A stretch of 32,000 bases of DNA from Raphidiopsis brookii D9 (GCA_000175855.1 ACYB01000046.1:150001-182000); one strand, 5' to 3'; shown: positions 48 through 32,000, counted from the stretch's first letter. The notes: a model not told the origin generated them from the letters alone. Numbers and translations are program-made.

Positions 48-1294
48 CTAGGGACGCTGAATAATGGTTTCCAGTACTCGACGCTTCAATTTAGGATCAA
101 TAACTACCAATCGTACATATTCACCAGCGTGTTCCAACAAACAAGATTCTAAAGCGGAAACCGCTTGTGGATAATCACTTATATGTAAATTGCCACAAGT
201 TTGCCAAGATCCCATAGAAAATCGTCTTTTATCAACGTATTCCACAGTGATTTTATGACCCTGGGATAAAACCTGACGAATTTGCTCCTGGGTGTCTAGA
301 GTTACCAGACTTAAGGGCGGGCTATTTTCTAAAGTTTTATTTGGAACATTTTGGTCATTGTGATCATGATTAGATTGCAAAGTCGGTAATTCTTTGACAG
401 GGGATTGAGCTTGATAACCCCTGCGATTATATTCAGCAACTAAATGAGAACTTTCCACATGTTTCTGCTCACCTACCATAACATTGCCAGCTTCAATTAA
501 ATGGAATAGGGTAAACTCAGGTTTTTGGAACTGTGGAGGAGGTTCCATACTATTAACCACCCGCATGGAAACTCTATCATATCCTATTTCATGGATAAAA
601 TCGCGAATTTGTTCGTCATAGATTCGCGAACGCAATGCACTAAAAAAGTCAATTGACTGATGGGGAAATGTATTAACTAACTGCTCAATTTCCACCGGAG
701 AAAGTCCATCCTCTGCAAAAATACCTCCCACAATTCCCACCTTATCATCATGGTTAGGTTCCCAGTAAAATTTCTCCATCCTCCCATCTCGAATTAATGG
801 TGCATAGAGGGTGGAAAAATCATTTCCAGTGACAATAATTGGTACTCGACGAATGGGTTTAGCATCATAACTTCCGGGTAACTGGACATCCGTGGGACTG
901 TCAGCAATGTTCATTAATGTGGCATTTACCAATTGAGTATTAACAGTGTATTGAGTTCCCTCGTCAAATCTACCGGCACCTGCGTCTAAATCATTAATCA
1001 TCAGCACACACATTTTGCCACGAACCTTAACCAGTTCCGCAGTCTCTCGATAGCGCAGACGAATTAATCTAGCTGGGTCCCCTGCATCTGGACTTTCTAA
1101 TTCCCCTCCGGAAATGAGAGTCACCCCCACACCCATTTTTCAAATGCCAATTCGCACTGAAATGACTTTCCTTCTCCCTTTCTACCATGAATTCCTAAAA
1201 TCAGCGGAACGCGCAGTCCCGCGAGATTGAGAAAGTTTTTAGTGATATGAACGGCTATTTTATCCAAAAACCGGGTAGAGATGTAGTAGGCCAT
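48..1294 (-). pseudogene. rca: Rubisco activase-like protein (AAA+ module plus C-terminal RbcS-like SSUL domain); frame broken by a 1-nt deficit in an A-run
   Basis: ORF 48..1136 encodes the Rca AAA+ core (GGELESPDAGDP, MINDLDAGAGRFDEGTQYTVNTQ, RVPIIVTGNDFSTLYAPLIRDGRMEKFYW) and an RbcS-like tail (GHKITVEYVDKRRF...GEYVRLVVIDPKLKRRV). The N-terminus with Walker A (MAYYISTRFLDKIAVHITKNFLNLAGLRVPLILGIHGRKGEGKSFQCELAFEK) starts at ATG 1294 in another frame and stops at TGA 1123..1121. The span 1294..48 is 1247 nt, not a multiple of 3. The two frames meet at the A5 run (minus strand) at 1136..1140. Confidence 0.85.
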
Positions 1295-1339
1295 ATTTCG
1301 GGAATTGTTAGAAACCGGTGAATTTCTACCAATTGTACG

Positions 1340-1573
1340 CTATTTTGGCAACCAGTTAGAACTTAAAACCACTGTTAAACCCAGAAAAATTACTGCCAGG
1401 CCCCAAGTAACACGATTGAGTGTATTCTCAGCACTTTTAGTACTGCTAAAAAGTTGAGCTTGTCCACCAATGGCTCCAATACCATCACCCTTGGGACTAT
1501 GTAACAAAACTAAAACAATTAAACCCAAAGCGGAGAAAGCCCAAATTACTTGTAGAATGTTGTTAATGTTCAT
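1340..1573 (-). CDS. secG: preprotein translocase subunit SecG
   Basis: 77-aa ORF with two hydrophobic helices flanking a Gly-rich loop (LLHSPKGDGIGAIGGQAQLFSS), typical of SecG. Confidence 0.85.
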   Translation of the reverse strand: MNINNILQVIWAFSALGLIVLVLLHSPKGDGIGAIGGQAQLFSSTKSAENTLNRVTWGLAVIFLGLTVVLSSNWLPK

Positions 1574-1611
1574 AGCTAGTCAAAATGGTGTAAAATTGAA
1601 AATAATGTGAT

Positions 1612-1636
1612 AAAAAACCTGCAAGTGCAGGTTTTG
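1612..1636 (-). terminator. intrinsic terminator-like hairpin between gpmI and secG
   Basis: The minus strand reads AAAACCTGC-ACTT-GCAGGTTTT, a 9-bp stem with a 4-nt loop running into a T6 tract. An A-tract on the other side makes it potentially bidirectional. Confidence 0.55.
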
Positions 1637-1692
1637 TCCCTATTTGCGACTTGGGATCGCTATTACTTGGAAACGCAAAAAGTATAACTTAT

Positions 1693-11741: not shown

Positions 11742-12176
11742 TCAGCTTAAAACCTCACAACTACCACCAGCAGCCTCAATTTTGCTCCGAGCTTGACCGG
11801 TGAAAGCAGCAGCTTGCACCTTGAGTGGAACACCCAATTCCCCATTACCCAATACTTTTAAAGGTCCTTTAGCGGAGGTAAGAATACCTGCCTCTTTTAA
11901 AGAGGCCAGATTTACTTCCGAGTTAGCAGGTAGGGAAGCCAGCTTCTCTACATTTATCGTAGTGTAAACCCGACGATTGACTACAGGAAAACCTTTGAGC
12001 TTGGGTATTCGACGGTAAAGAGGTTGTTGTCCACCTTCAAAACCCGGTCTAGTGCTGCTACCAGAGCGGGACTTTTGACCCCGCATGCCCAGACCTGCAC
12101 TAGCGCCTTGACCGGCAGAAATACCTCTACCTACACGCTTGCGGTCGTTTTTTAGAGCCCTTTTGAGGCTTAACAT
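11742..12176 (-). CDS. rplO: 50S ribosomal protein L15
   Basis: [26 protein letters not shown] is the L15 signature. Confidence 0.95.
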
Positions 12177-12245
12177 CGTTCAGTCTCATGTTGATCCTCT
12201 GGTTTTGCTATGGATTTTATTAATAAAACCCTGCATAAAGCATGA

Positions 12246-12770
12246 TTAAATATAGAGATTCTCTACCGCGATGCCCCGATCTTCAGCGACTTCAGCAAAT
12301 GTTCGCAGTGTAGATAAAGCATTAACAGCAGCTCTGGCGTTATTTAAAGGATTGTTAGAACCTAGTTGTTTAGCTAGAACATTACGTACTCCAGCTAATT
12401 CCAACACAGTTCTGACTGCACCACCGGCGATTACACCAGTACCTGGTGCGGCTGGGCGCATAATCACCTTAGCTCCACCACCAACACCATCAATGGGATG
12501 GGGAATAGAGTTAGACTTAGTGATAGGAATTTCAATCAGATGCTTTTTGCCATCTGCGACACCCTTTTTCACCGCTCCGATCACATCGGAAGCCTTACCA
12601 ACTCCCACACCCACCTGACCACGTTCGTTGCCAACGATGACAATTGCCCGGAAGCTGAGTTTTTTACCACCTTTGACCACCTTACTGACACGACGGATTT
12701 GAATCACCCGTTCTTGCCAGTTGGTTTCTTCTTTCTTCGCCTTACTTGCCTTACGACGACCCGTTGCCAT
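12246..12770 (-). CDS. rpsE: 30S ribosomal protein S5
   Basis: Contains the S5 dsRBD and C-terminal domain ([27 protein letters not shown]). ATG at 12770 is preferred over GTG at 12776. Confidence 0.94.
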
Positions 12771-12788
12771 AATCACTTTTCTCTCAAC

Positions 12789-12809
12789 GTCAGTTGTCAG
12801 TTGTCAGTT
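12789..12809. repeat. heptamer tandem repeat (GTCAGTT)x3 in the rplR-rpsE spacer
   Basis: Read directly. It reads AACTGAC on the transcribed strand. Confidence 0.85.
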
Positions 12810-12833
12810 GGGACTTTTTCCCCACAGAAAACT

Positions 12834-13196
12834 TTAGAAATCCAAACCTGCTTCCCGTGCTGCCTCAGCTAAAGCCTGAATACGACCATGATAAAGATTA
12901 CCACCTCGATCAAATACGACCTTAGTAATACCCTTTTCTAAAGAGCGCGCTGCTATTAACTTACCAACTTGGGCTGAAGCATCACAGTTAGCACCAGAGG
13001 CCAAATCAGACCTCAACTGAGGGTCTACTGTTGATGCTGCTACTAGTGTACGATGTTGTGTATCGTCAATAATTTGAGCATAAATGTGCTCATTAGAGCG
13101 AAACACTGATAGACGTGGACGTTCTGGGGAACCGTTGACTTTACCACGTACGCGCCTATGGCGACGTTGTTTTGATTCTCTACGAGTAAGTTTCAT
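12834..13196 (-). CDS. rplR: 50S ribosomal protein L18
   Basis: The 120-aa translation ([20 protein letters not shown]...[12 protein letters not shown]) is canonical L18. Confidence 0.96.
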
Positions 13197-13198
13197 GT

Positions 13199-13747
13199 TT
13201 ACTTCTTACCTTTACCACCAGTCTTACCGGCTTTACGTCTTACCACTTCACCGGCATAACGAATACCTTTACCTTTATAGGGTTCCGGGGGACGAACAGC
13301 ACGAATTTTAGCTGCCGTGTTACCCACCACCTCTTTGTCATAACCACTAACAATGACATTAGTGTTATTTTCAACAACAAATTGAACTCCCGCTGGTGGT
13401 TCGATTTGCACCTGGTGGCTATAACCAATATTCAATACCAGATTGGCACCCTGCACCTGAGCTCGATAACCTACCCCCTGAATTTCCAACCGGCGTTGAA
13501 AACCTTGGGAAACTCCCTCCACCATATTGGCTACCAAAGTCCGGCTTAAACCGTGCATTTGTCGGGAAGTGCGTGTATCATCACGTCTGGTGACTAACAA
13601 TGTTTCTCCAGATTGAGAAACTGTGACGTGGGTGGGTAGATCACGGGAAAGCTCCCCCTTGGGACCCTTAACCACCACCTTTGTACCATCTATTGCCACC
13701 TGTACTTTGGCGGGAATAGTAATTGGACGTTTACCAATACGAGACAT
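13199..13747 (-). CDS. rplF: 50S ribosomal protein L6
   Basis: [21 protein letters not shown]...[11 protein letters not shown] is canonical L6. Confidence 0.96.
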
Positions 13748-13761
13748 GAATTTTGTCCTTT

Positions 13762-13789
13762 GTCAGTTATGAGTTGTGAGTATGAGTCA
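13762..13789. repeat. degenerate period-7 repeat (GTCAGTT ATGAGTT GTGAGTA TGAGTCA) in the rpsH-rplF spacer
   Basis: Read directly. The first unit is identical to the heptamer at 12789 and 20113. Confidence 0.6.
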
Positions 13790-13837
13790 TCTGGAATTGG
13801 CCTGGGTCGCTCTACTCCCGAACTCCTGAGCTTGTTT

Positions 13838-14240
13838 TTACCAAACGTAGCAAAGCACTTCACCACCCAGGTTCTGGCGACGCGCTTCCCGGTCAGTCAT
13901 GATTCCACTAGAGGTGGAAATAATCGCGATCCCAATACCACCTAGGACTCTTGGCAGTTCCTTTTTGTTGGAATAAACTCGCAACCCAGGTTTACTTACA
14001 CGTTTTAGAGTCGTGATTAGAGGTTGACGACTTTTACCTTTGTATTTCAGAGAAATAACTAGGTTACGTTTTACCCCTTCTCCCGCTTCAGTGTACTCGG
14101 AAATAAACCCCTCTTGCTGTAGAACCTTAGCAATACTACGAGTCATTTTTTGTTGCTGGCACTTCCGTTGTTTGATGCCTTGCCAGGTTAGCATTGCGGA
14201 TGCGCGTCAGCATATCTGCAATTGTGTCGTTAGCGGCCAT
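13838..14240 (-). pseudogene. rpsH: 30S ribosomal protein S8; frame broken by one extra base in an A-run
   Basis: ATG at 14240 encodes the canonical S8 N-terminus [31 protein letters not shown]. That frame then runs NDS-stop (TAG at 14138..14136). The rest of S8 ([18 protein letters not shown]...GGEVLCYVW) is in the +1 frame, the tracked ORF 13838..14194. The span 14240..13838 is 403 nt, 402 plus 1. The frames meet at the minus-strand A6 run (plus-strand T6, 14146..14151). Confidence 0.88.
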
Positions 14241-14260
14241 CGTTCCCTCTTTAGATGAAC

Positions 14261-14809
14261 TTATTGATCCCGAAAGGGCATTCCCATTTCTTTAAGCAAA
14301 GCACGACCTTCTTCGTCGGTTTTGGCTGTGGTGATAATTGAAATATCTAAACCACGGATTTGATCGATTCTGTCGTACTCGATTTCTGGAAAGATTAGTT
14401 GTTCTCTCACCCCTAGGGTGTAGTTACCTCGACCGTCGAAGCTTTTGGCACTAACCCCGCGAAAATCGCGAATTCTGGGTAAGGCCAAACTAATCAACCG
14501 ATCCAAGAAAGCATACATCCGTTCGCCTCGGAGAGTCACCATAATGCCCACGGGCATGCCTTGACGAATTTTAAAGCCAGCGATCGCCTTTTTTGCTCTG
14601 GTCACCACTGGCTTTTGACCAGTAATTAGAGCAATTTCACTTAAAGACGCTTCCAAGGCCTTAGCATTTTGAGCCGCTTCGCCCAAACCTCGGTTAACAG
14701 TAACTTTCAGCACTTTAGGTACTTGATGCACATTAGTATACTGAAACTGTTGGGTTAGTTTGGGGACAATTGTTTGGCCATATAAAGTTTTGAGTCTAGT
14801 TGTCGCCAT
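14261..14809 (-). CDS. rplE: 50S ribosomal protein L5
   Basis: 182-aa canonical L5 ([20 protein letters not shown]...[10 protein letters not shown]). Confidence 0.96.
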
Positions 14810-14813
14810 TCAC

Positions 14814-15832: not shown

Positions 15833-15838
15833 AATCTT

Positions 15839-16503: not shown

Positions 16504-16538
16504 GATTGGTAGTTGGTAATCGGTGATTGGCAATTGGT
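16504..16538. repeat. degenerate heptamer array (GATTGGT AGTTGGT AATCGGT GATTGGC AATTGGT) in the rpsC-rplP spacer
   Basis: Read directly. There are five period-7 units. Confidence 0.75.
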
Positions 16539-16573
16539 TGTGACTAGTTTTGTTCTAGCCACCCGTCACCTAA

Positions 16574-17329
16574 TTACGCTTCATTTGACCGGTCTTCAAA
16601 TTGCTGGCGACGGCGTTGTTGTTGACGACGACGGGGTTCACGCTCTCTGGTTACTGGTTGGGAGACAATGTCTTCTTGTCCGGGAATAATCTCTCCCTTG
16701 AACACCCAAACCTTAACACCCAAAATTCCGTAAACCGTTTGAGCTGTACAGTAGGAATAGTCAATATCAGCCCGTAGAGTATGTAACGGTACTCTTCCTT
16801 CACGAGTCCATTCAGTTCGAGCAATTTCCGCACCGTTGAGACGACCACTCACCTGCACTTTGATTCCCTGTACTCCTGCTCTTTGGGCCCTTTGAATCGC
16901 TTGGCGAACTACGCGACGAAAAGAAACGCGTCTTTCTAGCTGTTGAGCAATGTATTCAGCAATTAAATAGGCATCCGCATCTACTTTTTGCACTTCTACA
17001 ACGTTGATGCGCACTTGTCGGTGACTGCCCAACAACTGCTGGAGTCCAGTACGCAGGGCTTCTATACCCTGTCCACCCCGGCCTACAACCACACCGGGTC
17101 TAGCCGTCCGCAGCTCTAAATCAACCTGGTCAGCTTTACGCTCAATGTGGATCTCAGAGAGACCAGCATTATTTTGAGCGTTTCTACCCAGCTTTTGTTC
17201 TATGTACTGACGGAGTTTGTGGTCTTCCTGTAGCAGTTCCGGATAGCGACCAGGAACTGCGAACCAAAGGGATTGATGTTCTTGTGTTATACCCAGACGA
17301 AACCCGACTGGATGAATTTTCTGTCCCAC
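16574..17329 (-). CDS. rpsC: 30S ribosomal protein S3
   Basis: (GTG)[14 protein letters not shown], with KH domain, plus an Arg/Gln-rich C-terminal tail. Confidence 0.96.
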
Positions 17330-17405
17330 AAATGCTTCCTCTAAAATTTCTGACTGTACTCACACAACCCAATTATTTGTAGCTGTGGTTGTAACCCTAT
17401 CTGAC

Positions 17406-17759
17406 TCATTGAGCAGCTTCTCCCACAGCAACAGTAATATGACAGGTCGGTTTACGAATCTGGTAAGCTCTCCCCTGGGCCCTGGGCTGGAATCTCTTTA
17501 AGACTGGGCCTTGATCCGCATAGGCTTGGGTAATTACTAGACTCGCCCTGTCTAATCCAGCATTATGTTCGGCATTGGCAGCGGCACTTCTTAATACCTT
17601 TAACACTGGCTCACAAGCACGATAAGGCATAAATTCCAGGATGATTAGTGCCTCCCGATAAGATAGACCCCGAATTTGATCTAACACCCGCCGCACTTTA
17701 TAGGGAGAAACGCGGATGTATCGAGCGATCGCTTTAACTTCTGTAGTATACGTTGCCAT
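17406..17759 (-). CDS. rplV: 50S ribosomal protein L22
   Basis: [22 protein letters not shown] is canonical L22. Confidence 0.96.
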
Positions 17760-17817
17760 AATTTACTCCGTTTAGGGCCACATGTCACCAGCTTGGGGCC
17801 AATGACTAATGACATAA

Positions 17818-18096
17818 CTATCTCCCCGATTTTTTATCGGTTTTTCCGTGGCCCCTATAGGTACGAGTGGGAGCAAATTCTCCCAACTTGTGTCCCACCA
17901 TTTGCTCATTCACAAACACTGGCACATGTTGTTTACCGTTGTGAACTGCAATAGTATGACCTACCATAAGTGGCAGAATTGTAGAAGCCCTTGACCAAGT
18001 CTTAATAACTTGCTTTTCATTATTGGCGTTGAGCTTTTCAAGCTTGCTGAGCAAGTGATCAGCGACAAAAGGACCCTTTTTTAAAGAACGACCCAT
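17818..18096 (-). CDS. rpsS: 30S ribosomal protein S19
   Basis: [16 protein letters not shown]...[15 protein letters not shown] is canonical S19. Confidence 0.96.
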
Positions 18097-18141
18097 AGTT
18101 CAATCTCAGATTTTAGATTTTTGGGGTTTTGGATTTACATC

Positions 18142-19005
18142 CTAGGACTGACGACCGCCACGTCCCCGTTTAGAAGACTTACGACGACGACGTACAATCA
18201 ATTTACTACTAGCTTTTTTACGCTTTCTGGTTTTAGCACCCAAAGCTGGTTTACCCCAAGGGGTAACCGGACCCGATCTACCAATAGGTGCCCTACCCTC
18301 TCCACCACCATGGGGGTGATCTACAGGGTTCATCACACTACCTCTGACCTTGGGACGACGACCTTTCCAGCGATTTCTACCAGCTTTTCCTGCACTCAGG
18401 TTTCTGGCATCCGTATTGCCCACCTGACCAATGGTGGCGTAGCATTCCCGGCGCACCATTCTTACTTCCCCGGATGGGAGCTTTAAGGTGACATAGTTAC
18501 CTTCTTTTGCCATCAACTGGGCTGTTGCTCCAGCTGCACGCACTATTTGTCCACCTTTTCCTGGTGTCATTTCCACATTGTGTACGTTAGTACCTAGGGG
18601 AATATTACTCAGGGGTAGGGCATTCCCGTCTTCAAAAGGTGCTTGGGGTCCAGCAGTGACCTTTGCCCCGACCTTTAATCCGTTAGGATGTAATATATAC
18701 CGCTTCTCGCCGTCTTCGTATTCTAATAAGGCAATCCGCGCATTCCGGTTAGGATCATATTCAACTGCTATAACTGTAGCGGTTATATCCCGCTTATCTC
18801 TTTTAAAGTCGATAATCCGGTATAGTTGTTTGTGTCCACCCCCCCGACGACGGCTAGTTATCCGCCCTTGATTATTCCGACCTTTGGGTCTATGCACTGA
18901 TTCCGTCAGTGATTTTTCAGGTTCGGTTTTTGTGATCTCCGCAAAGTCTGAAATAGTTACTTGGCGAGTGCTAGGGGTGTAAGGGCGATAGGAACGAGTA
19001 CCCAT
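18142..19005 (-). CDS. rplB: 50S ribosomal protein L2
   Basis: 287-aa canonical L2 ([32 protein letters not shown]). Confidence 0.97.
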
Positions 19006-19010
19006 AAACG

Positions 19011-19038
19011 ATTTTGGATTTTGGATTTTGGATTTTAG
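19011..19038. repeat. heptamer tandem repeat (ATTTTGG)x3 plus ATTTTAG in the rplW-rplB spacer
   Basis: Read directly. It starts 6 nt upstream of the rplB start codon on the transcribed strand. A degenerate relative lies at about 18108..18137. Confidence 0.85.
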
Positions 19039-20151: not shown

Positions 20152-20790
20152 CTACTTATTACCAACTTTAGTCGTGGGCACTACGTTGACTAAGCCACCG
20201 GGTTTGCCAGGAATTGCTCCCTTGATTAATATCAGGTTACGTTCCGCATCCACTTTCACCACGGTCAGTTTACGAACGGTGACGCGACTACCTCCCAATC
20301 TTCCTGCCATCCTTTTACCAGGATAAACACGACCAGGGGTTGTACCCGCTCCAATGGAACCAGGGGCTCTATGGTTTTTGGAACCATGGGACATTGGTCC
20401 CCTGCCAAAGTTATTGCGCTTCTGGTTACCCGCAAAACCACGCCCAATACTCGTCCCAATCACGTCCACAATCTGACCTACACTAAAAATATCTGCCTTT
20501 ATCTCCTGTCCTAAGGCATAATCACCCGCCGCGTCAGTCCGATATTCGTTTAAATACCGCACTGGTCCTGCTGATGACTTTGCCAGGTGACCTAACTTGG
20601 GTTGGTTTAACGCTTTTGGTTTTACTTCCCCATAGCCAACCTGAATGGCACAATAACCATCCGTGGGTTGGGTTTTAACTTGTGTAACAGTGCATGGACC
20701 AGCTTTGATGACGGTCACGGGAATGGATACTCCCGCTTCATCAAAAATTTGGGTCATGCCCAGCTTGGTGCCGAGAATACCTACAGACAC
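20152..20790 (-). CDS. rplC: 50S ribosomal protein L3
   Basis: (GTG)[17 protein letters not shown] is canonical L3. It is the first gene of the ribosomal array. Confidence 0.96.
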
Positions 20791-21655
20791 AGTAACTGGT
20801 TCTCCTTAATCTAGTTGCTGACCTTGGGAGCGGATTTTCAGAGGATTTTACTACGCCCATAGCAGAATTGCTAGTGACGTAACAAACTGTGAGCCTACTG
20901 TTTGGTGAATCCGTCTATTGTTTCTCTTTTTTATCCACCAGAACAGTGATAATTACCTTTTTGATTGCAAGGCATTATTTCTGGTATCAGTGCAAAAGCC
21001 TATAGCTTTGCTTTTGTGCAGCAATGGGTTACACTGGTTACTTTGTTCCACTGCTCTGGCACTCTCCGTTCGCAACAGGACTTAAGCAGTTATGCTCAGT
21101 ATCCATTTCCTGATAAATTATCAGGTTGCTCTTAACACCTCAAACTATGGTTTGAGGATCGGCCCTAAAAGGGCTAGCCGGAGCGAACTATAACTCAACT
21201 TTGTTAACTCAACTTCTTTTTGGCTGTGGGTTAGGGGCCTTCGTTTGAGTTTTACCTAGTCTTACCTAAATTGTCTCCATTCTAGCAGCTTTTTTGGTTT
21301 TTTCACCAAAAGACTCAAGGTTTTGCGGTGCTTTTTCCCCAAGCGGCTAAATTGAGAAGACCACTAATGGCGCGGTTTAGTTACAACCTAATAGTGTAAT
21401 CCATAAACCCGGTTTTGTCGAGTGGTTGAGCAAAAATATTTTGGCAGAGGTAATTAACCAGTTATCTACTACTTGCTAACTTTTGGCAACCAGTGCTAAA
21501 CTGTGTTGAGGAAGTTGGAATTTATCTTCGTGCACTAGTTGATACGCTTTGGTTAAGGTTTACCCTTAGCTTATGCATTTGTTAACGTTAGTTAGCAAAT
21601 AAGTATCGGTGAATGATAATGATAGAGATATATAGGTTGGGTGGGAGAAAAATCT

Positions 21656-22131
21656 ATGGCACTAATTACCACTGGCAGTGGTTTCATCCGGGATTTAGAA
21701 AAATTTGGTTCCTTGGGTGTATTTGTTCCCTTGGAAGGAGGTTATGAAGGTCGCTATCGTCGTCGTCTCAGGGCTGCAGGATATGTTAACCTTCATATTA
21801 CAGCTAGAGGTTTAGGAGACGTAGCAGCCTATTTGATGGGGATTCATGGGATTAGACCTCCCCATTTGGGCAAAAAGAGTACCAGCAATGGTGCAGCGGT
21901 AGGTGAGGTACAATATTTACCCCCTTAATCTCTTCCCATTTAGCCCAGCTACCCCCGAATTCCAAAGGATTGTTATTGTGGGTGATTGAGGGCAATATTC
22001 TTTCCGATCAGGAAGTGGAATATTTCACCAATTTACCCCGGTTGGAACCACGGGTCAAGGTAGTGATTGAAAGGGGTGGCGATCGCTATTTTCGTTGGAC
22101 TCCCCTAGAAAAAACCTTACTGGCCAGTTAA
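21656..22131 (+). pseudogene. ndhN: NDH-1 subunit N (NAD(P)H-quinone oxidoreductase subunit N); frame broken by a 1-nt deficit in a C-run
   Basis: ATG 21656 (RBS GGGAGA) gives MALITTGSGFIRDLEKFGSLGVFVPLEGGYEGRYRRRLRAAGY...GEVQYLPP, then TAA at 21926..21928. My translation of the -1 frame from 21925 gives LISSHLAQLPPNSKGLLLWVIEGNILSDQEVEYFTNLPRLEPRVKVVIERGGDRYFRWTPLEKTLLAS-stop (22129..22131). That is the expected NdhN C-terminal half. The span is 476 nt; adding one base gives 477 nt, or 158 aa. The junction is the C5 run at 21920..21924. Confidence 0.85.
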
Positions 22132-22755: not shown

Positions 22756-22800
22756 TTATTGACATTTATTTTCACTTACCCCAATTTTATCCTCCGTATC

Positions 22801-22853
22801 TTGTTAGATATTGTTAAATTTTGTTAAGATTGGAGACGACAAAGATTTATAAT
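22801..22853 (+). promoter_or_regulatory. three phased direct repeats TTGTTA(G/A) at exact 10-bp spacing plus a consensus TATAAT box upstream of the ABC-F gene
   Basis: ttgttagata / ttgttaaatt / ttgttaagat occupy 22801..22830. TATAAT lies at 22848..22853, 39 nt upstream of ATG 22892. Confidence 0.35.
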
Positions 22854-22891
22854 TTTTCCTACTCCCTATTCCTTAAATCGAGAGATATTTC

Positions 22892-24565
22892 ATGTTGAGA
22901 CTCGAACACATCAGTAAAATTTACCCCACGGGGGAAGTTCTAAAAGATATTAACTGGGAAGTCAAACCAGGCGATCGCATTGGTTTAGTGGGCGTTAACG
23001 GTGCGGGAAAGTCTACCCAATTGAAAATTATCTCTGGGGAAATAGAGCCCACTGCTGGTCAGATAATTCGTCCTGCTAGTTTGCACATAGCCTATCTTAA
23101 CCAGGAGTTTGAAGTAGATCCCACACGAACAGTTCAGGAAGAGTTTTGGACTGTTTTCAAAGAAGCTAACGCGGTGCAATTAGCACTATATGAAGTGCAG
23201 CGTGACATGGAAACAGCGACCGTAGAACAATTAGACAAACTAATTAATAAGTTAGACAAATTACAACGTCAGTTTGAGTCCCTAGATGGTTATAATCTAG
23301 ATGCTCGCATTGGTAAAATTCTGCCAGAAATGGGTTTTCAGGTAGAAGATGGGGATCGTCTGGTGAGTGCTTTTTCGGGGGGTTGGCAAATGCGCATGAG
23401 TTTGGGCAAAATCCTCTTGCAAAAGCCAGACCTATTACTACTAGACGAACCAACAAACCACTTAGACTTAGAAACTATTGAATGGTTAGAGAATTACCTC
23501 AGGAGTTTGACCACCCCCATGGTAATTATTTCCCATGACCGGGAGTTTTTAGACCGACTTTGCACACAAATTGTCGAAACTGAACGAGGGGTTTCCACCA
23601 CCTATCTAGGTAACTATTCTGCATATCTCCAACAAAAGGCTGAGAATGAAGCGTCTCAGTTAAGTGCCTTTGAACGTCAACAAAAGGAAATAGAAAAACA
23701 GCAAGCGTTTGTAGACAGATTTCGCGCTAGTGCTACTCGCAGCACCCAGGCAAAAAGCAGAGAAAAGCAGTTAGAGAAAGTTGAAAGAATTGAAGCACCA
23801 ACTACAGGGGTGAGAACCCTAAATTTTCGTTTTCCACCCGCACCGCGCAGTGGTAGGGAAGTGGTAGAAATTAAGGACCTTACCCACACCTATGGAGACA
23901 AGATCCTGTTTCTAGGTGCCAACTTGCTCATTGAACGGGGAGACAGGATCGCTTTCTTAGGACCTAATGGAGCAGGAAAGTCTACTCTGTTAAAAATGAT
24001 TACGGGTATGGAAATTCCTACGGAAGGAACTGTTAAACTGGGGGACCATAATGTTATTCCGGGTTATTTTGAACAGAATCAGGCGGAGGCCCTGGATCTA
24101 AATAAAACCGTCATGGAGACTATTCATGATGAAGTTCCTGATTGGAAAAATGAGGAAGTCCGTACGTTGCTGGGAAGGTTTTTATTTGCCGGGGATACGG
24201 TTTTCAAACAGGTAGGAGACCTAAGCGGGGGAGAGAAAGCAAGACTAGCACTGGCAAAGATGCTATTATGCCCAGTTAATTTAATCATTTTGGATGAACC
24301 TACTAATCACTTAGATATTCCCGCTAAAGAAATGTTGGAAGAAGCACTACAAAACTATGATGGTACAGCTATATTAGTGTCTCATGACCGTTACTTTATC
24401 TCCCAGGTGGCAAATAAAATTGTAGAAATTCGAGATGGAGAATTTCGAGTTTATTTAGGAGATTATCACTACTATCTAACTAAGATTGAGGAAGAAAAGG
24501 AACAAGCTAAATTAGCGGCTAAAAAGGCGACAAAAACAGCAAAAGCGGCTGCTAAGAAAAAGTAA
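22892..24565 (+). CDS. ABC-F family ATPase (tandem ABC domains, no TM domain; ribosome-associated type)
   Basis: There are two complete cassettes. The first has GVNGAGKST, FSGGWQMR and LLLLDEPTNHLD. The second has GPNGAGKST, LSGGEKAR and LIILDEPTNHLD. A charged inter-domain linker and a Lys/Ala-rich C-terminal tail are also present. Confidence 0.9.
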   Translation: MLRLEHISKIYPTGEVLKDINWEVKPGDRIGLVGVNGAGKSTQLKIISGEIEPTAGQIIRPASLHIAYLNQEFEVDPTRTVQEEFWTVFKEANAVQLALYEVQRDMETATVEQLDKLINKLDKLQRQFESLDGYNLDARIGKILPEMGFQVEDGDRLVSAFSGGWQMRMSLGKILLQKPDLLLLDEPTNHLDLETIEWLENYLRSLTTPMVIISHDREFLDRLCTQIVETERGVSTTYLGNYSAYLQQKAENEASQLSAFERQQKEIEKQQAFVDRFRASATRSTQAKSREKQLEKVERIEAPTTGVRTLNFRFPPAPRSGREVVEIKDLTHTYGDKILFLGANLLIERGDRIAFLGPNGAGKSTLLKMITGMEIPTEGTVKLGDHNVIPGYFEQNQAEALDLNKTVMETIHDEVPDWKNEEVRTLLGRFLFAGDTVFKQVGDLSGGEKARLALAKMLLCPVNLIILDEPTNHLDIPAKEMLEEALQNYDGTAILVSHDRYFISQVANKIVEIRDGEFRVYLGDYHYYLTKIEEEKEQAKLAAKKATKTAKAAAKKK

Positions 24566-24576
24566 GTTAAAGAACT

Positions 24577-24601
24577 CGGGGACTGAATGGCCTGTCCCCC
24601 G
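24577..24601 (+). terminator. hairpin (GGGGAC-N10-GTCCCC) followed by GTTT, just after the ABC-F stop
   Basis: Read directly. It lies between convergent genes. The T-tract is weak. Confidence 0.4.
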
Positions 24602-24739
24602 TTTGCCATCTTCATGAATACTCTAATAATTGTAGATGCTTGCTTGATTATAAAGGTTATCACTTAAACTAACTAATAGCTGATAATTGAGTGATAAGTT
24701 AAGAATTGTGGTGAGGTGCAACCTGTACTTGAGTGTTAG

Positions 24740-25024
24740 TTACTGCTGGGTATTATCCAAAGAGTTTCTCAACCGCATCAGTTGTCTTCTCATTTGAGGA
24801 GAGGCCTTAAATTCAGATATCTCCTGAGCTTTAACAGATGCTTGTAGCATTTCCAAAAATTCATCCGATCCCTCTGTAAGTGCATCTAAGAATACTTGCA
24901 GAAGCTGTTCACGATCTCCCAACAAACTTTTTTCTTCTATTAAGCGAAACTTAAGATGAATTTCACATTCATAAACACCGACTTGGAGATTGTTGACCTG
25001 GCTTGGTAATGCTTTGGAGTTCAT
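24740..25024 (-). CDS. small acidic hypothetical protein (94 aa)
   Basis: ATG-initiated ORF with coding-like, predicted helical, Glu/Leu/Gln-rich sequence. It has no recognisable motif and diverges from ndhM across a 630-bp AT-rich spacer. Confidence 0.6.
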   Translation of the reverse strand: MNSKALPSQVNNLQVGVYECEIHLKFRLIEEKSLLGDREQLLQVFLDALTEGSDEFLEMLQASVKAQEISEFKASPQMRRQLMRLRNSLDNTQQ

Positions 25025-25655
25025 AGTTGTGAGGATTCCTTTACTGGGTTAGAAACGGTGTTCATACAGGTGAGGAGCCAAAATATCCAGAAAAAAATAT
25101 TTATATTTTCTCAATATTTTCTCAAACACAGGGAAGACGTAACTTCAGTTTACTCATCTGCTAAATTTGTTTTCCATTCCGCCCTCCATAGTGATGAAAA
25201 ATTGCTTTTAACTGTTCCAATTTTACTCCTCCTTGTGTAGTTGTTGTATGTTGAAGTAGTAAAGCATAATGGGATTTTTAAGTTCTACACAATAAAGGTT
25301 CTGTAAGAACTTGTCCCACCTTTTTAAAAGTTTGTACAACAACTTTATCCAAACGTCAATACTGGGAAAATATATCACTTTATCAACTAGTAATTATATT
25401 TAAATTGATTTTTAAAAGTCTATATGGGTAAGACAATTTGATGTTAAGAACAGTTTTATTAAATAAAAACAGTGCCATTTGTTACATGCATTAAGATTTG
25501 TAACAAAAGTGACATAAAGCTTACGATATTTGATATATATAAGCGAAGTCCTAGCGATTCTGCTAATCAATCCATTTAGAAAATCCAAACAATTAAGATC
25601 GGGCACAACAGTTAAAATAATTGCAGTGTAATTAACCAAAATCCTAGACCTAATT

Positions 25656-26018
25656 ATGGATAACCCAATACTGCTTAAGTCCACAACCCGTCATATTCGC
25701 ATTTTTGCGGCCGAAATAAACAAAGACGAATTAGTCCCTAGCAACCAGGTTCTTACTTTAGACGTTGATCCAGATAACGAATTTAATTGGAGCGAAGATG
25801 CACTACAGAAAGTATATCGTAAATTTGATGAAATTGTAGAATCTTCAGAAGGTGTAGACCTAACAGACTATAATTTACGTCGGATTGGTTCAGATTTGGA
25901 GCATTTTGTGCGATCACTGTTACAAAGAGGTGAGATTAGCTACAATCTTGCTGCTCGTGTCACCAACTACAGCATGGGACTACCCCAAGTTGCAGTTAAG
26001 GTAAATGAAAGTTTCTAA
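25656..26018 (+). CDS. ndhM: NDH-1 subunit M (NAD(P)H-quinone oxidoreductase subunit M)
   Basis: LLKSTTRHIRIFAAEI...VLTLDVDPDNEFNW...LQKVYRKFDE...LTDYNLRRIGSDLEHFVRSLLQRGEISYNL matches my recollection of cyanobacterial NdhM. Confidence 0.88.
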   Translation: MDNPILLKSTTRHIRIFAAEINKDELVPSNQVLTLDVDPDNEFNWSEDALQKVYRKFDEIVESSEGVDLTDYNLRRIGSDLEHFVRSLLQRGEISYNLAARVTNYSMGLPQVAVKVNESF

Positions 26019-26105
26019 CCCATCAACAAAATTAGGGATCTGGTAAACCCAGACTCTAAAAAGTTCGGGAACACTAATTGCTAGTCGCTGCTTGGTGCGA
26101 GAAAT

Positions 26106-28013
26106 ATGGAAAATGAAGTGGCAATGCTTTTCTGCCCAAACGAATATTGTCAAGCCCCCAATCCTCTAAACCACAGGTTTTGCCAGAGATGCTCCACACC
26201 CTTACCTAGGCGTTATCTGTGGACGGTGGGGGTTCATGATGTGGGTAATCCGGGAAAAATTGTGGGAGACCGTTATGTAATCATTGAGGGGTCGATAATT
26301 TTAGATCTCAAACCCGGATTACCACCCCAAGCACCTGATTTAGCTTATTTAGATCAAGTCAAGCCCTATCTAAAACTTATCCCCCACCGCCTGCACATAC
26401 CACAGATTTATGGAGTTCTTCCTGTAACTGAACCAGAAGCTAGAACAAATACACTGCTGTTGGAAGCCATACCCCTAATCCATGACAATGAAAACCAGCA
26501 AGTACATTTGTGGAGCGACCTAATCACAGCTTGGGGTAAAGCTTCTTCCATACGACAAATTAATTGGTTGTGGCAAATAGCGAGATTATGGCAACCCCTA
26601 TACGAGCAAGGGGTTGCTAGTAGTTTGTTAGACTGGGACTTAATTAGAGTCCAAGGGGGATTAGTTAAGGTCCTGGAACTACGTACTGACAGCTCTTATA
26701 TAAACCTGTCACAGTTAGGAAAAGCTTGGCAACAACTTTTAACACATACTCGACCGTTCTTTGTGGACTTGCTCAACCAGGTTTGTGAATCTTTGATTAA
26801 CGAAGAAATTACTTCGTCTAAACATTTAACTATAATTTTAGACGAAGCGCTATCACAAATAGACAAGTTGCAAAAAAACACTTCAAGCATTGCCGTAAAA
26901 ATTTTGACTCAAACTGATCCAGGTCCAAGTCGTCAAAGAAATGAGGACTCCTGCTATCCATCTCCAGACATTGTAGTTAGTCTATCTTCCCCAAGGGATG
27001 GTCTAGCTATTGTTTGCGATGGTATTGGCGGACATGAAGGAGGAGATATAGCATCCGATTTAGCAGTAAAGACCATTGTAGCACAAGTAGAAGAAATATT
27101 AACAATTCAGGGAAGTGTAGACAACTATAGAGATTCACAAACAGTCGTTCAAATGTTGGAACTAGCAGTAGCACTAGCAAACGATAAGATCAGCGAGCAG
27201 AACGATATTGATCACCGTCAAGGTCGTCAGAGAATGGGAACCACCCTAGTCATGGCCATACCCATTGCTCACCAGATGTACATTACCCATCTGGGAGACA
27301 GTCGTGCTTATTGGATTACCGATCATGGTTGTTATCAGGTGACCCTGGATGATGATGTAGCTTCCCGTGAGGTGCGTTTAGGTTATGCCACTTACCGTGA
27401 AGCCATACAACATCGTGGTTCAGGTTCCTTAATTCAGGCTCTTGGTATGGGTACTAGCGCTTTACTTTCCCCCACTTGTGAGCGGTTTATTCTGGATGAG
27501 GATGGTATTTTCCTCCTGAGTTCTGATGGACTGACAGATTTTGATCGGGTAGAGGACCACTGGGAAACCGAAATCCTACCTGTTTTGCGCGGGAAGTCTA
27601 ATTTACAAACTACCGCATCTCGACTGGTAGAAATTGCTAATACTAAGAATGGGCATGATAATGTCACTATTGCTCTGTTACATTATCAAGTTCAATATCA
27701 AGAGCCCAGTGCAGTGCTAGAGGCAAAAATTCCGCCCATTAGTTTCGGTAAAACAGTTAATATAACCGGTAGTAATTCCCAAGCAAGGGATGTAAATTAT
27801 TTCCCCCAATCAACTCGGGTGATTCCTGAAACTCCAGGTATTAAGGATCATAAACGCAAAATCCCCATACGGCTATTAATTCTGTTAGCTGTACTTTTAG
27901 GGGCCGGATTTTTAGGATCCTGGCTCAACCGAGAAACAAAATCCCCGGTTCCTGTTTCTACACCTACCCCATCGGTGAAAACTATAATTTACTTTTATCA
28001 TACTAACTGGTAA
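26106..28013 (+). CDS. multidomain PP2C-family Ser/Thr phosphatase: N-terminal zinc ribbon, degenerate kinase-like middle region, PP2C domain, C-terminal TM anchor
   Basis: The Zn-ribbon is CPNEYCQAPNPLNHRFCQRC (aa 10-29). PP2C motifs are RQRNEDS, LAIVCDGIGGHEGGDIAS, MGTTLVMA, THLGDSRAY, LLSSDGLTD and NGHDNVT. The TM helix is IRLLILLAVLLGAGFLGSWL near the C-terminus. The stop abuts lpxC. Confidence 0.88.
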   Translation: MENEVAMLFCPNEYCQAPNPLNHRFCQRCSTPLPRRYLWTVGVHDVGNPGKIVGDRYVIIEGSIILDLKPGLPPQAPDLAYLDQVKPYLKLIPHRLHIPQIYGVLPVTEPEARTNTLLLEAIPLIHDNENQQVHLWSDLITAWGKASSIRQINWLWQIARLWQPLYEQGVASSLLDWDLIRVQGGLVKVLELRTDSSYINLSQLGKAWQQLLTHTRPFFVDLLNQVCESLINEEITSSKHLTIILDEALSQIDKLQKNTSSIAVKILTQTDPGPSRQRNEDSCYPSPDIVVSLSSPRDGLAIVCDGIGGHEGGDIASDLAVKTIVAQVEEILTIQGSVDNYRDSQTVVQMLELAVALANDKISEQNDIDHRQGRQRMGTTLVMAIPIAHQMYITHLGDSRAYWITDHGCYQVTLDDDVASREVRLGYATYREAIQHRGSGSLIQALGMGTSALLSPTCERFILDEDGIFLLSSDGLTDFDRVEDHWETEILPVLRGKSNLQTTASRLVEIANTKNGHDNVTIALLHYQVQYQEPSAVLEAKIPPISFGKTVNITGSNSQARDVNYFPQSTRVIPETPGIKDHKRKIPIRLLILLAVLLGAGFLGSWLNRETKSPVPVSTPTPSVKTIIYFYHTNW

Positions 28014-28037
28014 GTGGAATTTATCTGGCGTTTACAA

Positions 28038-28883
28038 ATGCATCAACATACTTTAGCTGCTGAAATTTGCCAAACGGGTGTGGGACTTCATAGTGGTGTA
28101 AATAGTACCGTGCGAATACTACCAGCTCCAAGCGGGAGCAAACGCTACTTTGTGAGGGTCGATTTACCTAATTTGCCAATTATTCCCGCTGAAATCGCAG
28201 CAGTTAATCAAACTCTCCTCTCTACTGAATTAGGCACGGGAAACGCTTGCATACGCACAGTAGAGCATTTACTAGCGTCCTTGGCTACTATGGGTGTAGA
28301 TAATGCCCGGATTGAAATTGACGGATCCGAAGTACCACTTTTAGATGGTTCCGCTCAAGTGTGGACTAATAGCATTGCTGCTGTAGGATTAACTTCACAA
28401 CCCGTTATTGATCAGTCTTTTCCCATAGTAATTAAGGAACCTATCTACGTTTATGACAAGGACGCATTTGTTTGTGTCTTACCTGGAGAGGATACACGTT
28501 TTAGCTATGGAATTGATTTTGATGTACCAGCAATTGGCAATCAATGGTACAGTTTTGTCCTTTGCCATGGGGAAGATATTCCCCATTCCTTTCTCACCGA
28601 AATTGCCCCAGCTCGAACCTTTGCCCTCTTACATCAAATTGAACATCTACAAAAATCCGGTTTAATCAAAGGTGGTACTCTGGAAAACGCCCTAGTTTGC
28701 GGAATGGATGGCTGGGTAAATCCACCATTAAGATTTATGAATGAACCTGTCAGACATAAAATCCTCGACCTAGTGGGTGATATCAGCCTATTAGGACAGT
28801 TTCCCAAGGGCCACTTTCTAGCCTACAAAGCTAGTCATCACTTGCATATCCAGTTAGCACGTAAAATTTTAGAGAGTGTCTGA
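28038..28883 (+). CDS. lpxC: UDP-3-O-acyl-N-acetylglucosamine deacetylase
   Basis: [21 protein letters not shown]...TVEHLLA...[11 protein letters not shown] are LpxC zinc-site and signature regions. ATG 28038 is preferred over GTG 28014. Confidence 0.92.
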
Positions 28884-28974
28884 AAAGTTGTGCTAAAAAT
28901 TAAGTAAACTTTAAGATTATACGCTATTATCTAGGCTAATTTAGCTTCCCACATCTCAATCAAATCCATTGCCA

Positions 28975-29490
28975 ATGTTAACCTTCAGCCAAACCAATTT
29001 TATCCAAGTGACTACATCCCAAGGAGAAGACCAAACCATTAATACATCAGCAACTAAAACAACTTTCACCATAGAAGAGATTCAGCAACTAATACCCCAT
29101 CGCTACCCGTTTTTACTAGTAGATAAAATAGTTGACTATATTCCGGGAAAGTTGGCTGTAGGTATAAAAAATGTTACTTTTAACGAGCCTCAGTTCCAGG
29201 GACATTTTCCCGGACGCTCCCTAATGCCAGGGGTTCTAATTGTGGAAGCTATGGCTCAAGTTGGAGGGGTTGTTATGAGTCAAATGCCTAATATGCCTGA
29301 GGGACTGTTTGTATTTGTAGGTATTGACAAAGTGCGGTTTCGTCGTCAAGTGGTACCCGGTGACCAATTAATTATGACTGTGGAACTATTATCTGTCAAA
29401 CAACGTCGGTTTGGAAAAATGCAGGGTCGAGCTGAAGTTGACGGAAATCTCGCCGCTGAGGGAGAACTAATGTTCTCTTTAATTAGTTAA
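28975..29490 (+). CDS. fabZ: 3-hydroxyacyl-ACP dehydratase FabZ
   Basis: [14 protein letters not shown]...[27 protein letters not shown] is the FabZ hot-dog signature. The start could be ATG 28975 or TTG 28969. Confidence 0.92.
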
Positions 29491-29677
29491 AATTAGGACA
29501 GATAAAAAACCTGCGTATTTAGATGTAGCAGTGAAGCACATTACTCTAATTAATAAGTATTTTGTCGTCCCTGCTCCCTAATTCCAAATCTCATTCACAT
29601 TTCAAATTCGTCTTCCTCACACACCACTTAATTTTGCCCGACACTTTGTCTATGAAACCAGTTCTGGAGAGTCACCC

Positions 29678-30502
29678 TTGAAGACACTTATTCATCCAAC
29701 TGCTGTAATACATCCTAACGCGGAACTCCACTCAACGGTGCAAGTAGGTGCCTATGCTGTGATTGGAGCGAATGTTCAAGTCGGACCAGAAACCGTTATT
29801 GGTGCCCATGCGGTGGTGGAAGGACCATGTAAAATTGGATCGGGAAATCACATTTTTCCAGGTGCTGTAATCGGTATGGAACCCCAAGACCTGAAATATG
29901 TGGGAGAACTATCTTGGGTTAAGATTGGTGATAATAATGCCATTCGTGAGTATGTGACTATTAACCGGGCTACGGGTCATGGTGAAGCAACAGTTATTGG
30001 TAATGGTAATCTGCTGATGGCTTATGTCCATGTGGGTCACAATTGCATAATTGAAGACTCAGTTATTATTGCTAACTCGGTAGCTTTGGCTGGTCATGTA
30101 CATATTGAGTCCCGAGCTAGACTCAGTGGGGTTTTGGGTGTTCACCAATTTGTCCACATTGGTGGTATGTCCATGATTGGGGGGATGACACGTATTGATC
30201 GGGATGTTCCTCCCTATATGTTAGTTGAAGGAAATCCATCCCGCATCCGATCACTCAATTTGGTAGGACTAAAGCGCTCAGGAATGCCGATAAATGAGTT
30301 TCAACTACTGAAAAAGGCTTTTCGTATTCTCTATTGCTCTAATGTGTTGTTTAAGGATGCTTTATCTGAGTTGGAACTATTAGGGGATACATCACAGCTA
30401 AAACATTTACGTCGGTTCTTGCTACTTTCACAAATGCCAGGAAGAAGGGGGTTGATTCCGGGGAAAAGTCCCACCAAAGGTAGTGACAATAATGAGTTGT
30501 GA
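29678..30502 (+). CDS. lpxA: acyl-ACP--UDP-N-acetylglucosamine O-acyltransferase
   Basis: Left-handed beta-helix hexapeptide repeats follow (TTG)KTLIHPTAVIHPNAELH. GGAGAG lies 8 nt upstream of the TTG start. Confidence 0.9.
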   Translation: MKTLIHPTAVIHPNAELHSTVQVGAYAVIGANVQVGPETVIGAHAVVEGPCKIGSGNHIFPGAVIGMEPQDLKYVGELSWVKIGDNNAIREYVTINRATGHGEATVIGNGNLLMAYVHVGHNCIIEDSVIIANSVALAGHVHIESRARLSGVLGVHQFVHIGGMSMIGGMTRIDRDVPPYMLVEGNPSRIRSLNLVGLKRSGMPINEFQLLKKAFRILYCSNVLFKDALSELELLGDTSQLKHLRRFLLLSQMPGRRGLIPGKSPTKGSDNNEL

Positions 30503-30533
30503 TTGGCTAGTTAGCTAGTCTTGACAAATTATG

Positions 30534-30606
30534 AATGATGAGTTTACTTATATTTATAAACTAGTACATTAAGTATACTAAACTAATATAATAAGTACTC
30601 ATCATT
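30534..30606. repeat. imperfect inverted repeat (AATGATGAGTttACTTA ... TAAGTACTCATCATT) in the lpxA-lpxB spacer
   Basis: Read directly. The arms are 15-17 nt, separated by about 41 nt of AT-rich sequence. TTGACA at 30521..30526 and TATAAT at 30628..30633 flank it. Confidence 0.6.
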
Positions 30607-30660
30607 TGGCTGAAATGCTAGAGCGCCTATAATGTCTAACTCATTTAAAATCTAAAGTTC

Positions 30661-31794
30661 ATGCGAGTATTTATCAGTACTGGGGAAGTTTCGGGAGATT
30701 TACAGGGTGCGATGTTAATCACAGCACTGAAAAATCAAGCTGCTACTTTGGGCTTGCCATTAGAGATAGTAGCACTAGGTGGATCCCAAATGGCTAAAGC
30801 TGGAGCAAGAGTTTTGGGGGATACTAGTGGTATTGGTTCCATGGGAATTGTGGAAGCATTGCCATATATCATACCAACTATTATGATGCAAAGACAGGCG
30901 ATCGCCTATTTAAAAAAAAATCCCCCGGATATCATAGTGTTAATTGACTACATGACCCCTAATATGGGGATTGGTAGTTATATGCAGCAGCATTTTCCCC
31001 AGGTTCCTGTAGTATATTACATTGCTCCTCAAGAATGGGTATGGTCAATGAGTTTAGACAGAACTAGGAAAATAGTCAATTTTACTGATAAGTTATTAGC
31101 AATTTTTCCGGAAGAAGCCCGTTATTATCAAGCGAAGGGAGCTAATGTTAATTGGGTGGGTCATCCTTTAGTGGATAAAATGGTCAACACACCTAGTCGT
31201 GAAAGTGCCAGAAAGATATTAGGCATTCAGGAGCAAGAATTGGCGATCGCCCTTTTACCCGCTTCCCGTCATCAAGAGTTGAAATATTTACTACCTGGGA
31301 TTTTCCAAGCGGCAAAAAATATACAATCACAGTTACCAAAAGCAAATTTTCTGATTCCCTTATCTTTAGAAAGATTTCGGGGAAAAGTTACCAGAGCGAT
31401 TAAGGATTATGGATTAAAAGCCAGAATATTTTCTGTAAACCAGCAGGAAATTTTTGCTGCTGCTGATCTGGCAATTACAAAATCTGGCACAGCCAATTTA
31501 GAGTTAGCTCTAGCGAATGTTCCTCAAGTAGTTGTTTATAGTCTGAGTCCCTTTACTGCTTGGGTTGGTAGAAAGATTCTGAAAGGATCAATTCCTTTTG
31601 CTTCCCCCGTAAATTTAGTTCTCATGCGAGAAATTGTGCCAGAGCTATTACAGGAAAAAGCAACAGCAGATAATATTACTAAAGCAGCAATGGAATTATT
31701 ATTAAACAGGGAAAAAAGAACAAAAAACTCTATTGGATTATCAAGAGATGCGTCAGTGTTTGGGAGAAGTAGGAGTTTGCGATCGCGCAGCTAA
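30661..31794 (+). CDS. lpxB: lipid-A-disaccharide synthase; the 3' end is probably frameshifted and the true stop is likely at 31814..31816
   Basis: MRVFISTGEVSGDLQGA is a typical LpxB N-terminus, with a GT-B fold throughout. After the A6 runs at 31712..31717 and 31722..31727 the tracked frame turns into an Arg/Ser-rich tail (SRDASVFGRSRSLRSRS). The +1 frame instead reads TLLDYQEMRQCLGEVGVCDRAAKEILAMI-stop, which looks like a genuine LpxB C-terminus. Confidence 0.85.
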   Translation: MRVFISTGEVSGDLQGAMLITALKNQAATLGLPLEIVALGGSQMAKAGARVLGDTSGIGSMGIVEALPYIIPTIMMQRQAIAYLKKNPPDIIVLIDYMTPNMGIGSYMQQHFPQVPVVYYIAPQEWVWSMSLDRTRKIVNFTDKLLAIFPEEARYYQAKGANVNWVGHPLVDKMVNTPSRESARKILGIQEQELAIALLPASRHQELKYLLPGIFQAAKNIQSQLPKANFLIPLSLERFRGKVTRAIKDYGLKARIFSVNQQEIFAAADLAITKSGTANLELALANVPQVVVYSLSPFTAWVGRKILKGSIPFASPVNLVLMREIVPELLQEKATADNITKAAMELLLNREKRTKNSIGLSRDASVFGRSRSLRSRS

Positions 31795-32000
31795 AGAGAT
31801 TTTAGCGATGATATAAATTGATTGGCTTGTGACCTATAAATAATAATCATTGACAACAGAAGTTGCCAGAATTTACACTTAATCATTGCTAATAATTACT
31901 GAGTTTTCCCCATCGTTCCTACTACTCTTACCGAGAAGTATTTTAAATAGTTGACTAATATGTTTGACACCGCTGAGAATAACTAAAGTTAATACTCCAC

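Follow-up and report, generated by a model that had tools for sequence, protein, structure and literature searches.

Single-base frameshifts in core genes of the Raphidiopsis brookii D9 draft genome, probably consensus errors of 454/GS20 sequencing

Five genes out of frame in one draft contig

Within one stretch of 32,000 nucleotides from the 2010 GenBank draft of Raphidiopsis brookii D9 (GCA_000175855.1, ACYB01000046.1:150001-182000; the whole stretch is called the window here and positions are counted from its first letter), the five genes rca, rplO, rpsH, ndhN and lpxB are each put out of frame by a single base, and the question raised by this locus is whether these genes are decaying in the organism or are broken only in its sequence record. 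A first-pass annotation of the same DNA had reported four such frameshifts; all four are present in the genes and at the positions given there, but the number is five, as the one in rplO (position 12145) had been overlooked. The five frameshifts are very probably an assembly artefact, made up of consensus errors of a 454/GS20 draft, and not signs of decaying genes, and the real genes of D9 would then be intact. The evidence for this reading comes from the identity of the source, the sequencing platform, insertions and deletions (indels) that are private to one assembly, the geometry of these indels in flow space and the contrast between indels and substitutions.

In the case of rca, which encodes a Rubisco activase-like protein (minus strand, 48..1294), the frame is lost by one missing base in the run at 1136-1140, which is A5 on the coding strand (T5 on the strand shown) in D9 and A6 in five relatives. 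The restored protein of 415 amino acids matches the Pfam models AAA, RuBisCO_activase_AAA_helical and RuBisCO_small, and the 362-residue Rca fragment encoded by the window is EFA71760.1. In rplO, encoding ribosomal protein L15 (minus strand, 11742..12189; 148 amino acids when restored), the extra base at 12145 lies outside any run and is missing from 14 relatives; the coding strand reads A6-C-G-[A]-CC and the other strand GG-[T]-C-G-T6, with the extra T two bases from T6. The frameshift displaces the first 15 codons, restored L15 gives a full-length match to TIGR01071, and the window product of 144 residues is EFA71776.1. This deposited 'L15' (11742-12176) begins at a spurious ATG and carries about 10 wrong residues.

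The gene for ribosomal protein S8, rpsH (minus strand, 13838..14240), has one extra base in the run at 14146-14151, which is A6 on the coding strand (T6 on the strand shown) in D9 and A5 in 14 relatives. Restored S8 of 133 amino acids matches NF001109 across residues 1-133, and the window product of 118 residues is EFA71780.1 (13838-14194), a chimeric protein entered as a normal one, whose first 16 residues are out of frame. One base is lost from the run at 21920-21924 in ndhN, encoding subunit N of NDH-1 (plus strand, 21656..22131); the run is C5 in D9, C6 in Cylindrospermopsis raciborskii CENA303, and C7 together with a T>C change in nine others. Restored NdhN (158 amino acids) matches PF11909 over residues 1-152, and the 90-residue window product is EFA71794.1. 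For these three runs in rca, rpsH and ndhN the relatives bear out the restoring lengths proposed in the first-pass annotation.

In the fifth gene, lpxB, encoding lipid-A-disaccharide synthase (plus strand, 30661..31816; 384 amino acids when restored), the first-pass annotation was right that there is one extra A, but it had placed it in an A6 run. Both A6 runs (31712-31717 and 31722-31727) have the same length in all seven relatives, and the change lies between them, at 31719-31720, where positions 31718-31721 read GAAC in D9 and GAC in the seven relatives, so that a single A is doubled. Restored LpxB matches TIGR00215 over residues 1-382, and the 377-residue window product is EFA71804.1.

When one base is reverted per gene, S8, L15 and NdhN become identical to the proteins of CENA303 and LpxB differs from its counterpart by one residue, and the comparable stretch of Rca (307 codons) shows zero substitutions relative to CENA303. 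The family matches run end to end, and the view that the five genes show no other decay is upheld. Genuine pseudogenes would be expected among dispensable genes or with further signs of decay; here S8 and L15 are affected, which we take to be essential core ribosomal proteins, and once restored, the sequences match intact orthologues exactly or almost exactly.

Among called genes, the shifted LpxB and Rca fragments gave no entry. An exact protein look-up identified the five frameshift-specific products of the window, at 100% identity, as D9 GenBank proteins from one contig of 239,572 bp. Among about 15 billion proteins no other source of the five shifted products was found, and the intact versions occur on up to 138 contigs. 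An exact match to SecY led to many C. raciborskii assemblies with the same gene order and with all five genes intact (S8 of 133, NdhN of 158, Rca of 415, L15 of 148 and LpxB of 384-389 amino acids). D9 itself, a saxitoxin-producing member of the Nostocales that groups within Cylindrospermopsis/Raphidiopsis raciborskii, is a free-living aquatic, planktonic strain kept in culture. It was sequenced on 454/GS20 at 27x, together with 188 small-insert, 491 fosmid and 253 finishing Sanger reads, and the authors credited the short-insert Sanger reads with correcting '454/Roche technology intrinsic errors' (PMC2821919). Beside 27x of 454/GS20 data these small-insert reads are few, and the window comes from a flow-chemistry source with little orthogonal correction.

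The frameshifts might be real and be decoded anyway, with transcriptional slippage or ribosomal frameshifting giving full-length proteins, as the first-pass annotation had suggested in calling the pseudogenisation possibly leaky. Four of the five sites lie at or adjoin A or C runs of 5-6 nt, and polymerase slippage has been proposed for frameshifted endosymbiont genes (discussed in PMC5574713). The insertion frequency in transcription climbs exponentially with run length, however, at overall indel rates of about 1e-5 per nucleotide, and in a genome- and transcriptome-wide survey frame restoration was not seen in any case, Buchnera included (PMC5574713); because of these rates and this survey, runs of 5-6 nt are too short and could not supply an essential ribosomal protein. 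In addition, the rplO insertion lies outside any run, and none of the five shifted arrangements is found in a relative, although a recoding site would be expected to be conserved. Such a rescue is hardly credible.

Private indels and the contrast with substitutions

The closest strain is CENA303 (NBYN01), which was sequenced with Illumina HiScan and MiSeq and is 99.6-99.8% identical to D9 across positions 375-32000. Every difference between D9 and CENA303 was listed and then polarised with more distant strains; between 5 and 14 assemblies, CENA303 among them, were comparable at each coding site. At all five coding sites the frame-preserving state is present in all comparable assemblies, and each frameshift is therefore private to the D9 assembly. 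The first-pass annotation had named the comparison with orthologues as a point at which a technical explanation could fail, and no relative shares any of the split arrangements.

In total, D9 has seven private one-base indels, five of them in the genes described above and two in intergenic sequence. The intergenic ones are found between rpsS and rplB (18118-18122), where D9 has T5 and three comparable relatives have T4, and between rplC and ndhN (21290-21295), where D9 has T6 and 14 relatives have T5. Five of the seven are changes in the length of runs of 4-6, with A/T runs dominating. The comparison with CENA303 alone had given nine indels, two of which were set aside. One is an intergenic change from A3 to A4 between infA and rpmJ (window 9391, CENA303 12296), which is private to CENA303, as D9 agrees with all other strains; it is the sole one-base indel clearly private to this Illumina assembly. 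The other is a run between the DUF3172 and ABC-F genes (22853-22857), T5 in D9 and T6 in CENA303, which is not polarisable, the other strains being unalignable here.

When private indels are set against private substitutions, D9 has 7 versus 13, whereas the numbers for assemblies from Illumina or other short reads are about 1-2 versus about 70-90. The excess in D9 is significant in a Fisher test (p about 7e-5), in which the short-read assemblies were pooled approximately as 1 versus 70, in agreement with the earlier remark that the frameshift rate is abnormally high.

The substitutions tell a different story from the indels. D9 and CENA303 differ by 32 synonymous and 6 nonsynonymous changes (pN/pS of 0.057), and among the 13 substitutions private to D9, the nine that lie in genes are synonymous without exception. 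Coding sequence makes up 79% of runs of at least 5 bases and 86% of all bases, and the five of seven private indels that fall in genes are what random placement predicts, as would be expected of indels that ignore coding constraint. A test for depletion of indels in genes gives binomial p values of 0.46-0.83, from numbers too small for a strong test by itself, and the selection argument is based on the contrast between indels and substitutions and not on this depletion test. As the private coding substitutions are all synonymous and five of seven indels are coding, the indels have escaped a selection that the substitutions did not. If a lineage does not tolerate a single amino-acid change across 27 kb of coding DNA, it cannot have fixed frameshifts in S8 and L15 as well.

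This contrast bears directly on the proposal that the frameshifts, or some of them, are genuine mutations fixed in D9, marking early pseudogenisation in a lineage whose genome is shrinking. The background of the strain lends some colour to this proposal: no genomes in the group are smaller than those of D9 and CENA303, and gene loss is documented for them; both lack an AMIN-domain gene found in other strains; and the rca gene of one metagenome scaffold lacks the AAA core, so that rca may be dispensable in the species. Against it stand the synonymous character of all nine private coding substitutions, the identity of the broken genes to intact orthologues in every other respect, the occurrence of the shifted products in no other assembly, and the presence of S8 and L15, core ribosomal proteins that are essential as a matter of general knowledge, among the products affected in a culture that grows. 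Altogether, the proposal is improbable. There is a small chance that at least one frameshift is genuine in D9, most plausibly that of rca, ndhN or lpxB rather than those of the ribosomal genes, and if this were true, the locus would capture gene inactivation through homopolymer slippage while it is under way in a filamentous, free-living cyanobacterium whose genome is already the smallest of its kind.

The first-pass annotation had framed pseudogenisation in terms of a host-restricted, eroding genome. Buchnera, Blochmannia and 'Nostoc azollae' are obligate symbionts under relaxed selection, in which the tracts concerned are about 9-11 nt or longer. The window resembles their pseudogenes (poly(A) tracts in Buchnera and Blochmannia; 'Nostoc azollae' 0708, PMC2900214) in that otherwise intact genes carry single-base frameshifts in runs, and the pseudogene-rich 'Nostoc azollae' 0708 is a fairly close relative of the D9 lineage. 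In contrast to these bacteria, D9 is free-living, its runs measure 5-6 nt, its private changes in genes are synonymous only, essential ribosomal genes are affected and the changes are confined to one assembly. The premise of host restriction is wrong for D9, and relaxed selection is at odds with a pN/pS of 0.057 and with nine synonymous and no nonsynonymous private changes; this part of the earlier interpretation is not supported.

Species-representative genomes scanned for the rpsH site with either run length gave no match, and a scan of the same genomes with the PP2C protein returned distant genera only (Umezakia, Rivularia, Symploca). A search of JGI metagenomes for an independent D9-like assembly, made with the ndhN site and a linked D9-private single-nucleotide polymorphism, likewise gave no match. 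A Logan contig encoding an identical PP2C protein was considered as independent D9 data and rejected, as it belongs to a different strain (8 mismatches in 4 kb) and does not reach any of the sites. In the literature on D9 that was searched for pseudogenes and frameshifts, genome reduction is mentioned and frameshifts are not.

Flow-space geometry and control assemblies

TACG was taken as the flow order of 454 sequencing, and with this order the sequences were rewritten as flowgrams. For rplO, D9 differs from the presumed true sequence by +1 in one A flow, one cycle after the A6 flow, and for lpxB by +1 in the single-A flow that lies between two A6 flows; both statements hold in either read orientation. 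Both insertions thus fall in a same-base flow that is four flows, or one TACG cycle, away from a 6-mer flow, a geometry shared by only about 0.1% of the possible non-duplicating insertions and about 0.2% of the possible single-base doublings in the window. All seven private indels correspond to a change of +1 or -1 in a single flow, five as run-length changes and two near a 6-mer flow. For GS20, Huse et al. (2007, PMC2323236) defined carry-forward errors as insertions of a base that also forms a homopolymer further on, with one or two other bases in between, and the insertions in rplO and lpxB fit this definition.

Replication slippage lengthens or shortens a run; an insertion at a distance of two positions from the run is not among its effects. 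Two of the five insertions lie at carry-forward positions and are not a product of slippage, which argues further against genuine mutation. The errors in rplO and lpxB therefore show that this stretch of the assembly contains uncorrected flow artefacts, and the commoner run-length miscalls are then to be expected in it too. The first-pass annotation had offered systematic errors of the pyrosequencing type as one of its two explanations, and a 454/GS20 draft with assembly-private indels, two of them with a carry-forward signature, is in good agreement with it.

The mechanism would be as follows. The five frameshifts, together with two or three of the intergenic length changes, would be flow-chemistry errors left uncorrected in the consensus. 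Runs of 4-6 would have been over- or under-called by one, and the signal of a 6-mer flow would have bled into a neighbouring flow of the same nucleotide through carry-forward or incomplete extension, creating the spurious base in rplO and doubling the single A in lpxB. Borderline signals would be expected at these flows in the actual reads. The homopolymer and carry-forward/incomplete-extension (CAFIE) errors described for GS20 (PMC2323236) are similar in that single-base insertions and deletions occur on the same platform, D9 showing five run-length miscalls and two insertions of the carry-forward type. They differ in that they were described per read, whereas in D9 such errors would have survived into a 27x consensus, and in that a sister GS20 assembly, CS-505, is free of them at this locus.

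A heterogeneous culture might also give such a record, if polyploid filaments or mixed subclones of D9 carried both alleles and the consensus took the shifted ones. Nostocales cyanobacteria carry many genome copies, as is generally known. Slowly segregating deletions are documented in cultured Anabaena sp. 90 (PMC3542288). A majority of loss-of-function copies would nevertheless be needed at five genes at once within 32 kb, two of these genes being essential, and the mixture would explain neither the carry-forward geometry nor the tendency of the indels to track homopolymer density and not gene dispensability, so that we consider it highly improbable. A mutator lineage deficient in mismatch repair was likewise rejected, as even such a lineage would not be able to fix frameshifts in S8 and L15, and the carry-forward geometry would not follow from it.

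The interpretation as 454/GS20 consensus errors can be compared with other assemblies at the same locus. Two of these, CYRF and CYLP (NPIL01, NPIK01), come from Ion PGM, another flow-based platform (PMC5658482). CYRF has six and CYLP two private one-base indels at the locus, seven of the eight in A/T homopolymer runs; those of CYRF lie in NPIL01000001.1 at 12700-18300 and those of CYLP in NPIK01000002.1 at about 4456 and 9608. As a result, rpsK, rplM and prfA are split, truA is extended and ndhN is shortened. These two assemblies are an in-locus positive control for flow-chemistry artefacts: as in D9, private indels in the same species, at the same locus and from flow-based chemistry break ribosomal and other core genes, although the platform and the sites are different and none of the indels coincides with one in D9. 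No indels in genes were found in ITEP-A1 (MiSeq), CENA303, MVCC19, JAPTYF01 and the Logan and JGI contigs.

Several points weigh against the artefact interpretation, and the most serious comes from the sister genome CS-505, which was obtained in the same study and on the same platform as D9 (GS20 at 34x and 3909 Sanger reads; PMC2821919). When its orthologous region of about 35 kb (ACYA01000028.1) was compared with close assemblies, no homopolymer indels were found. There are none relative to one 21-kb and three 11.6-kb close-strain assemblies and none relative to a 13.5-kb metagenome contig, and there is one intergenic difference, outside any homopolymer, which is common to two other contigs. 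At the rate seen in D9, about 8-10 indels would be expected in CS-505, and the chance of finding none is below 0.001. An assembly from the same pipeline does not have a comparable error density, and this is the main caveat; as CS-505 is clean, GS20 chemistry alone does not guarantee such a density of errors, and this absence can be counted in favour of genuine mutation in D9. Higher coverage and about 0.7x of Sanger reads account for only part of the gap between the two genomes, and the remaining gap may come from run quality or manual finishing. Furthermore, a change of +1 or -1 within a run is also expected from real replication slippage, so that, taken alone, five of the seven private indels have no diagnostic value. 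The D9 lineage does have genuine gene losses (nif and heterocyst genes, and the deletion of the AMIN-domain gene in common with CENA303).

Other differences at the locus and meaning of the D9 record

The window has a G+C content of about 43% and is a region of cyanobacterial core genes. On the minus strand it carries, from left to right, rca, secG, an iPGM gene, prfA and a long cluster of ribosomal-protein genes with secY, adk and rpoA, and on the plus strand, again from left to right, ndhN, a DUF3172 gene, an ABC-F gene, ndhM, a PP2C phosphatase gene, lpxC, fabZ, lpxA and lpxB.

Some further differences from other assemblies were observed. At window 22760-22807, D9 and CENA303 lack a gene for an AMIN-domain protein of about 230 amino acids, which in other strains separates the DUF3172 and ABC-F genes; in place of about 830 bp there are 48 bp (compare L014 10545-11372), and the absence looks like a genuine loss common to these two reduced strains that do not fix nitrogen. 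From 22.8 to 29.8 kb, D9 and CENA303 show 5 differences from each other and are about 5.5% divergent from other South American strains, versus about 1.8% in the ribosomal cluster, and from 29.8 to 30.66 kb (lpxA and downstream) D9 and CENA303 differ by 18 substitutions in 860 bp. This mosaic divergence at 22800-30660 suggests recombination tracts. In the spacer between rplB and rplW (19010-19016), D9 has one extra 7-bp unit (GATTTTG) relative to all 8 other assemblies, which is not an error of the flow type and may reflect either a true polymorphism of the repeat or faulty assembly.

In the ENA metagenome scaffold LIAN20-1 (L002), positions 20280-20870, corresponding to window 473-1172, show an rca from which about 700 bp with the AAA+ core are missing, leaving a short N-terminal stub and a small-subunit (SSU)-like open reading frame of 146 amino acids; the missing part may have been deleted naturally or lost through collapse of the assembly. 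An artefact of a different kind is seen in VDFG01000311.1 and VDFF01000274.1, which contain many N-rich insertions of about 20-25 nt that duplicate adjacent sequence and interrupt the calls of the ABC-F, PP2C and lpxA genes.

If the five frameshifts are consensus errors, their biological importance is small and the practical point is one of database hygiene. The D9 record is widely used as a reference, being the smallest genome of a filamentous cyanobacterium, and truncated or chimeric proteins are deposited from it as ordinary entries. In scans for eroding genomes, the sequencing platform and the assembly-private status of indels should be checked first. If the window is typical of the D9 draft, there would be about one indel per 4-5 kb and about one gene in nine affected (5 of 44 genes here), and comparative work on genome reduction in the lineage would show an inflated apparent gene loss.

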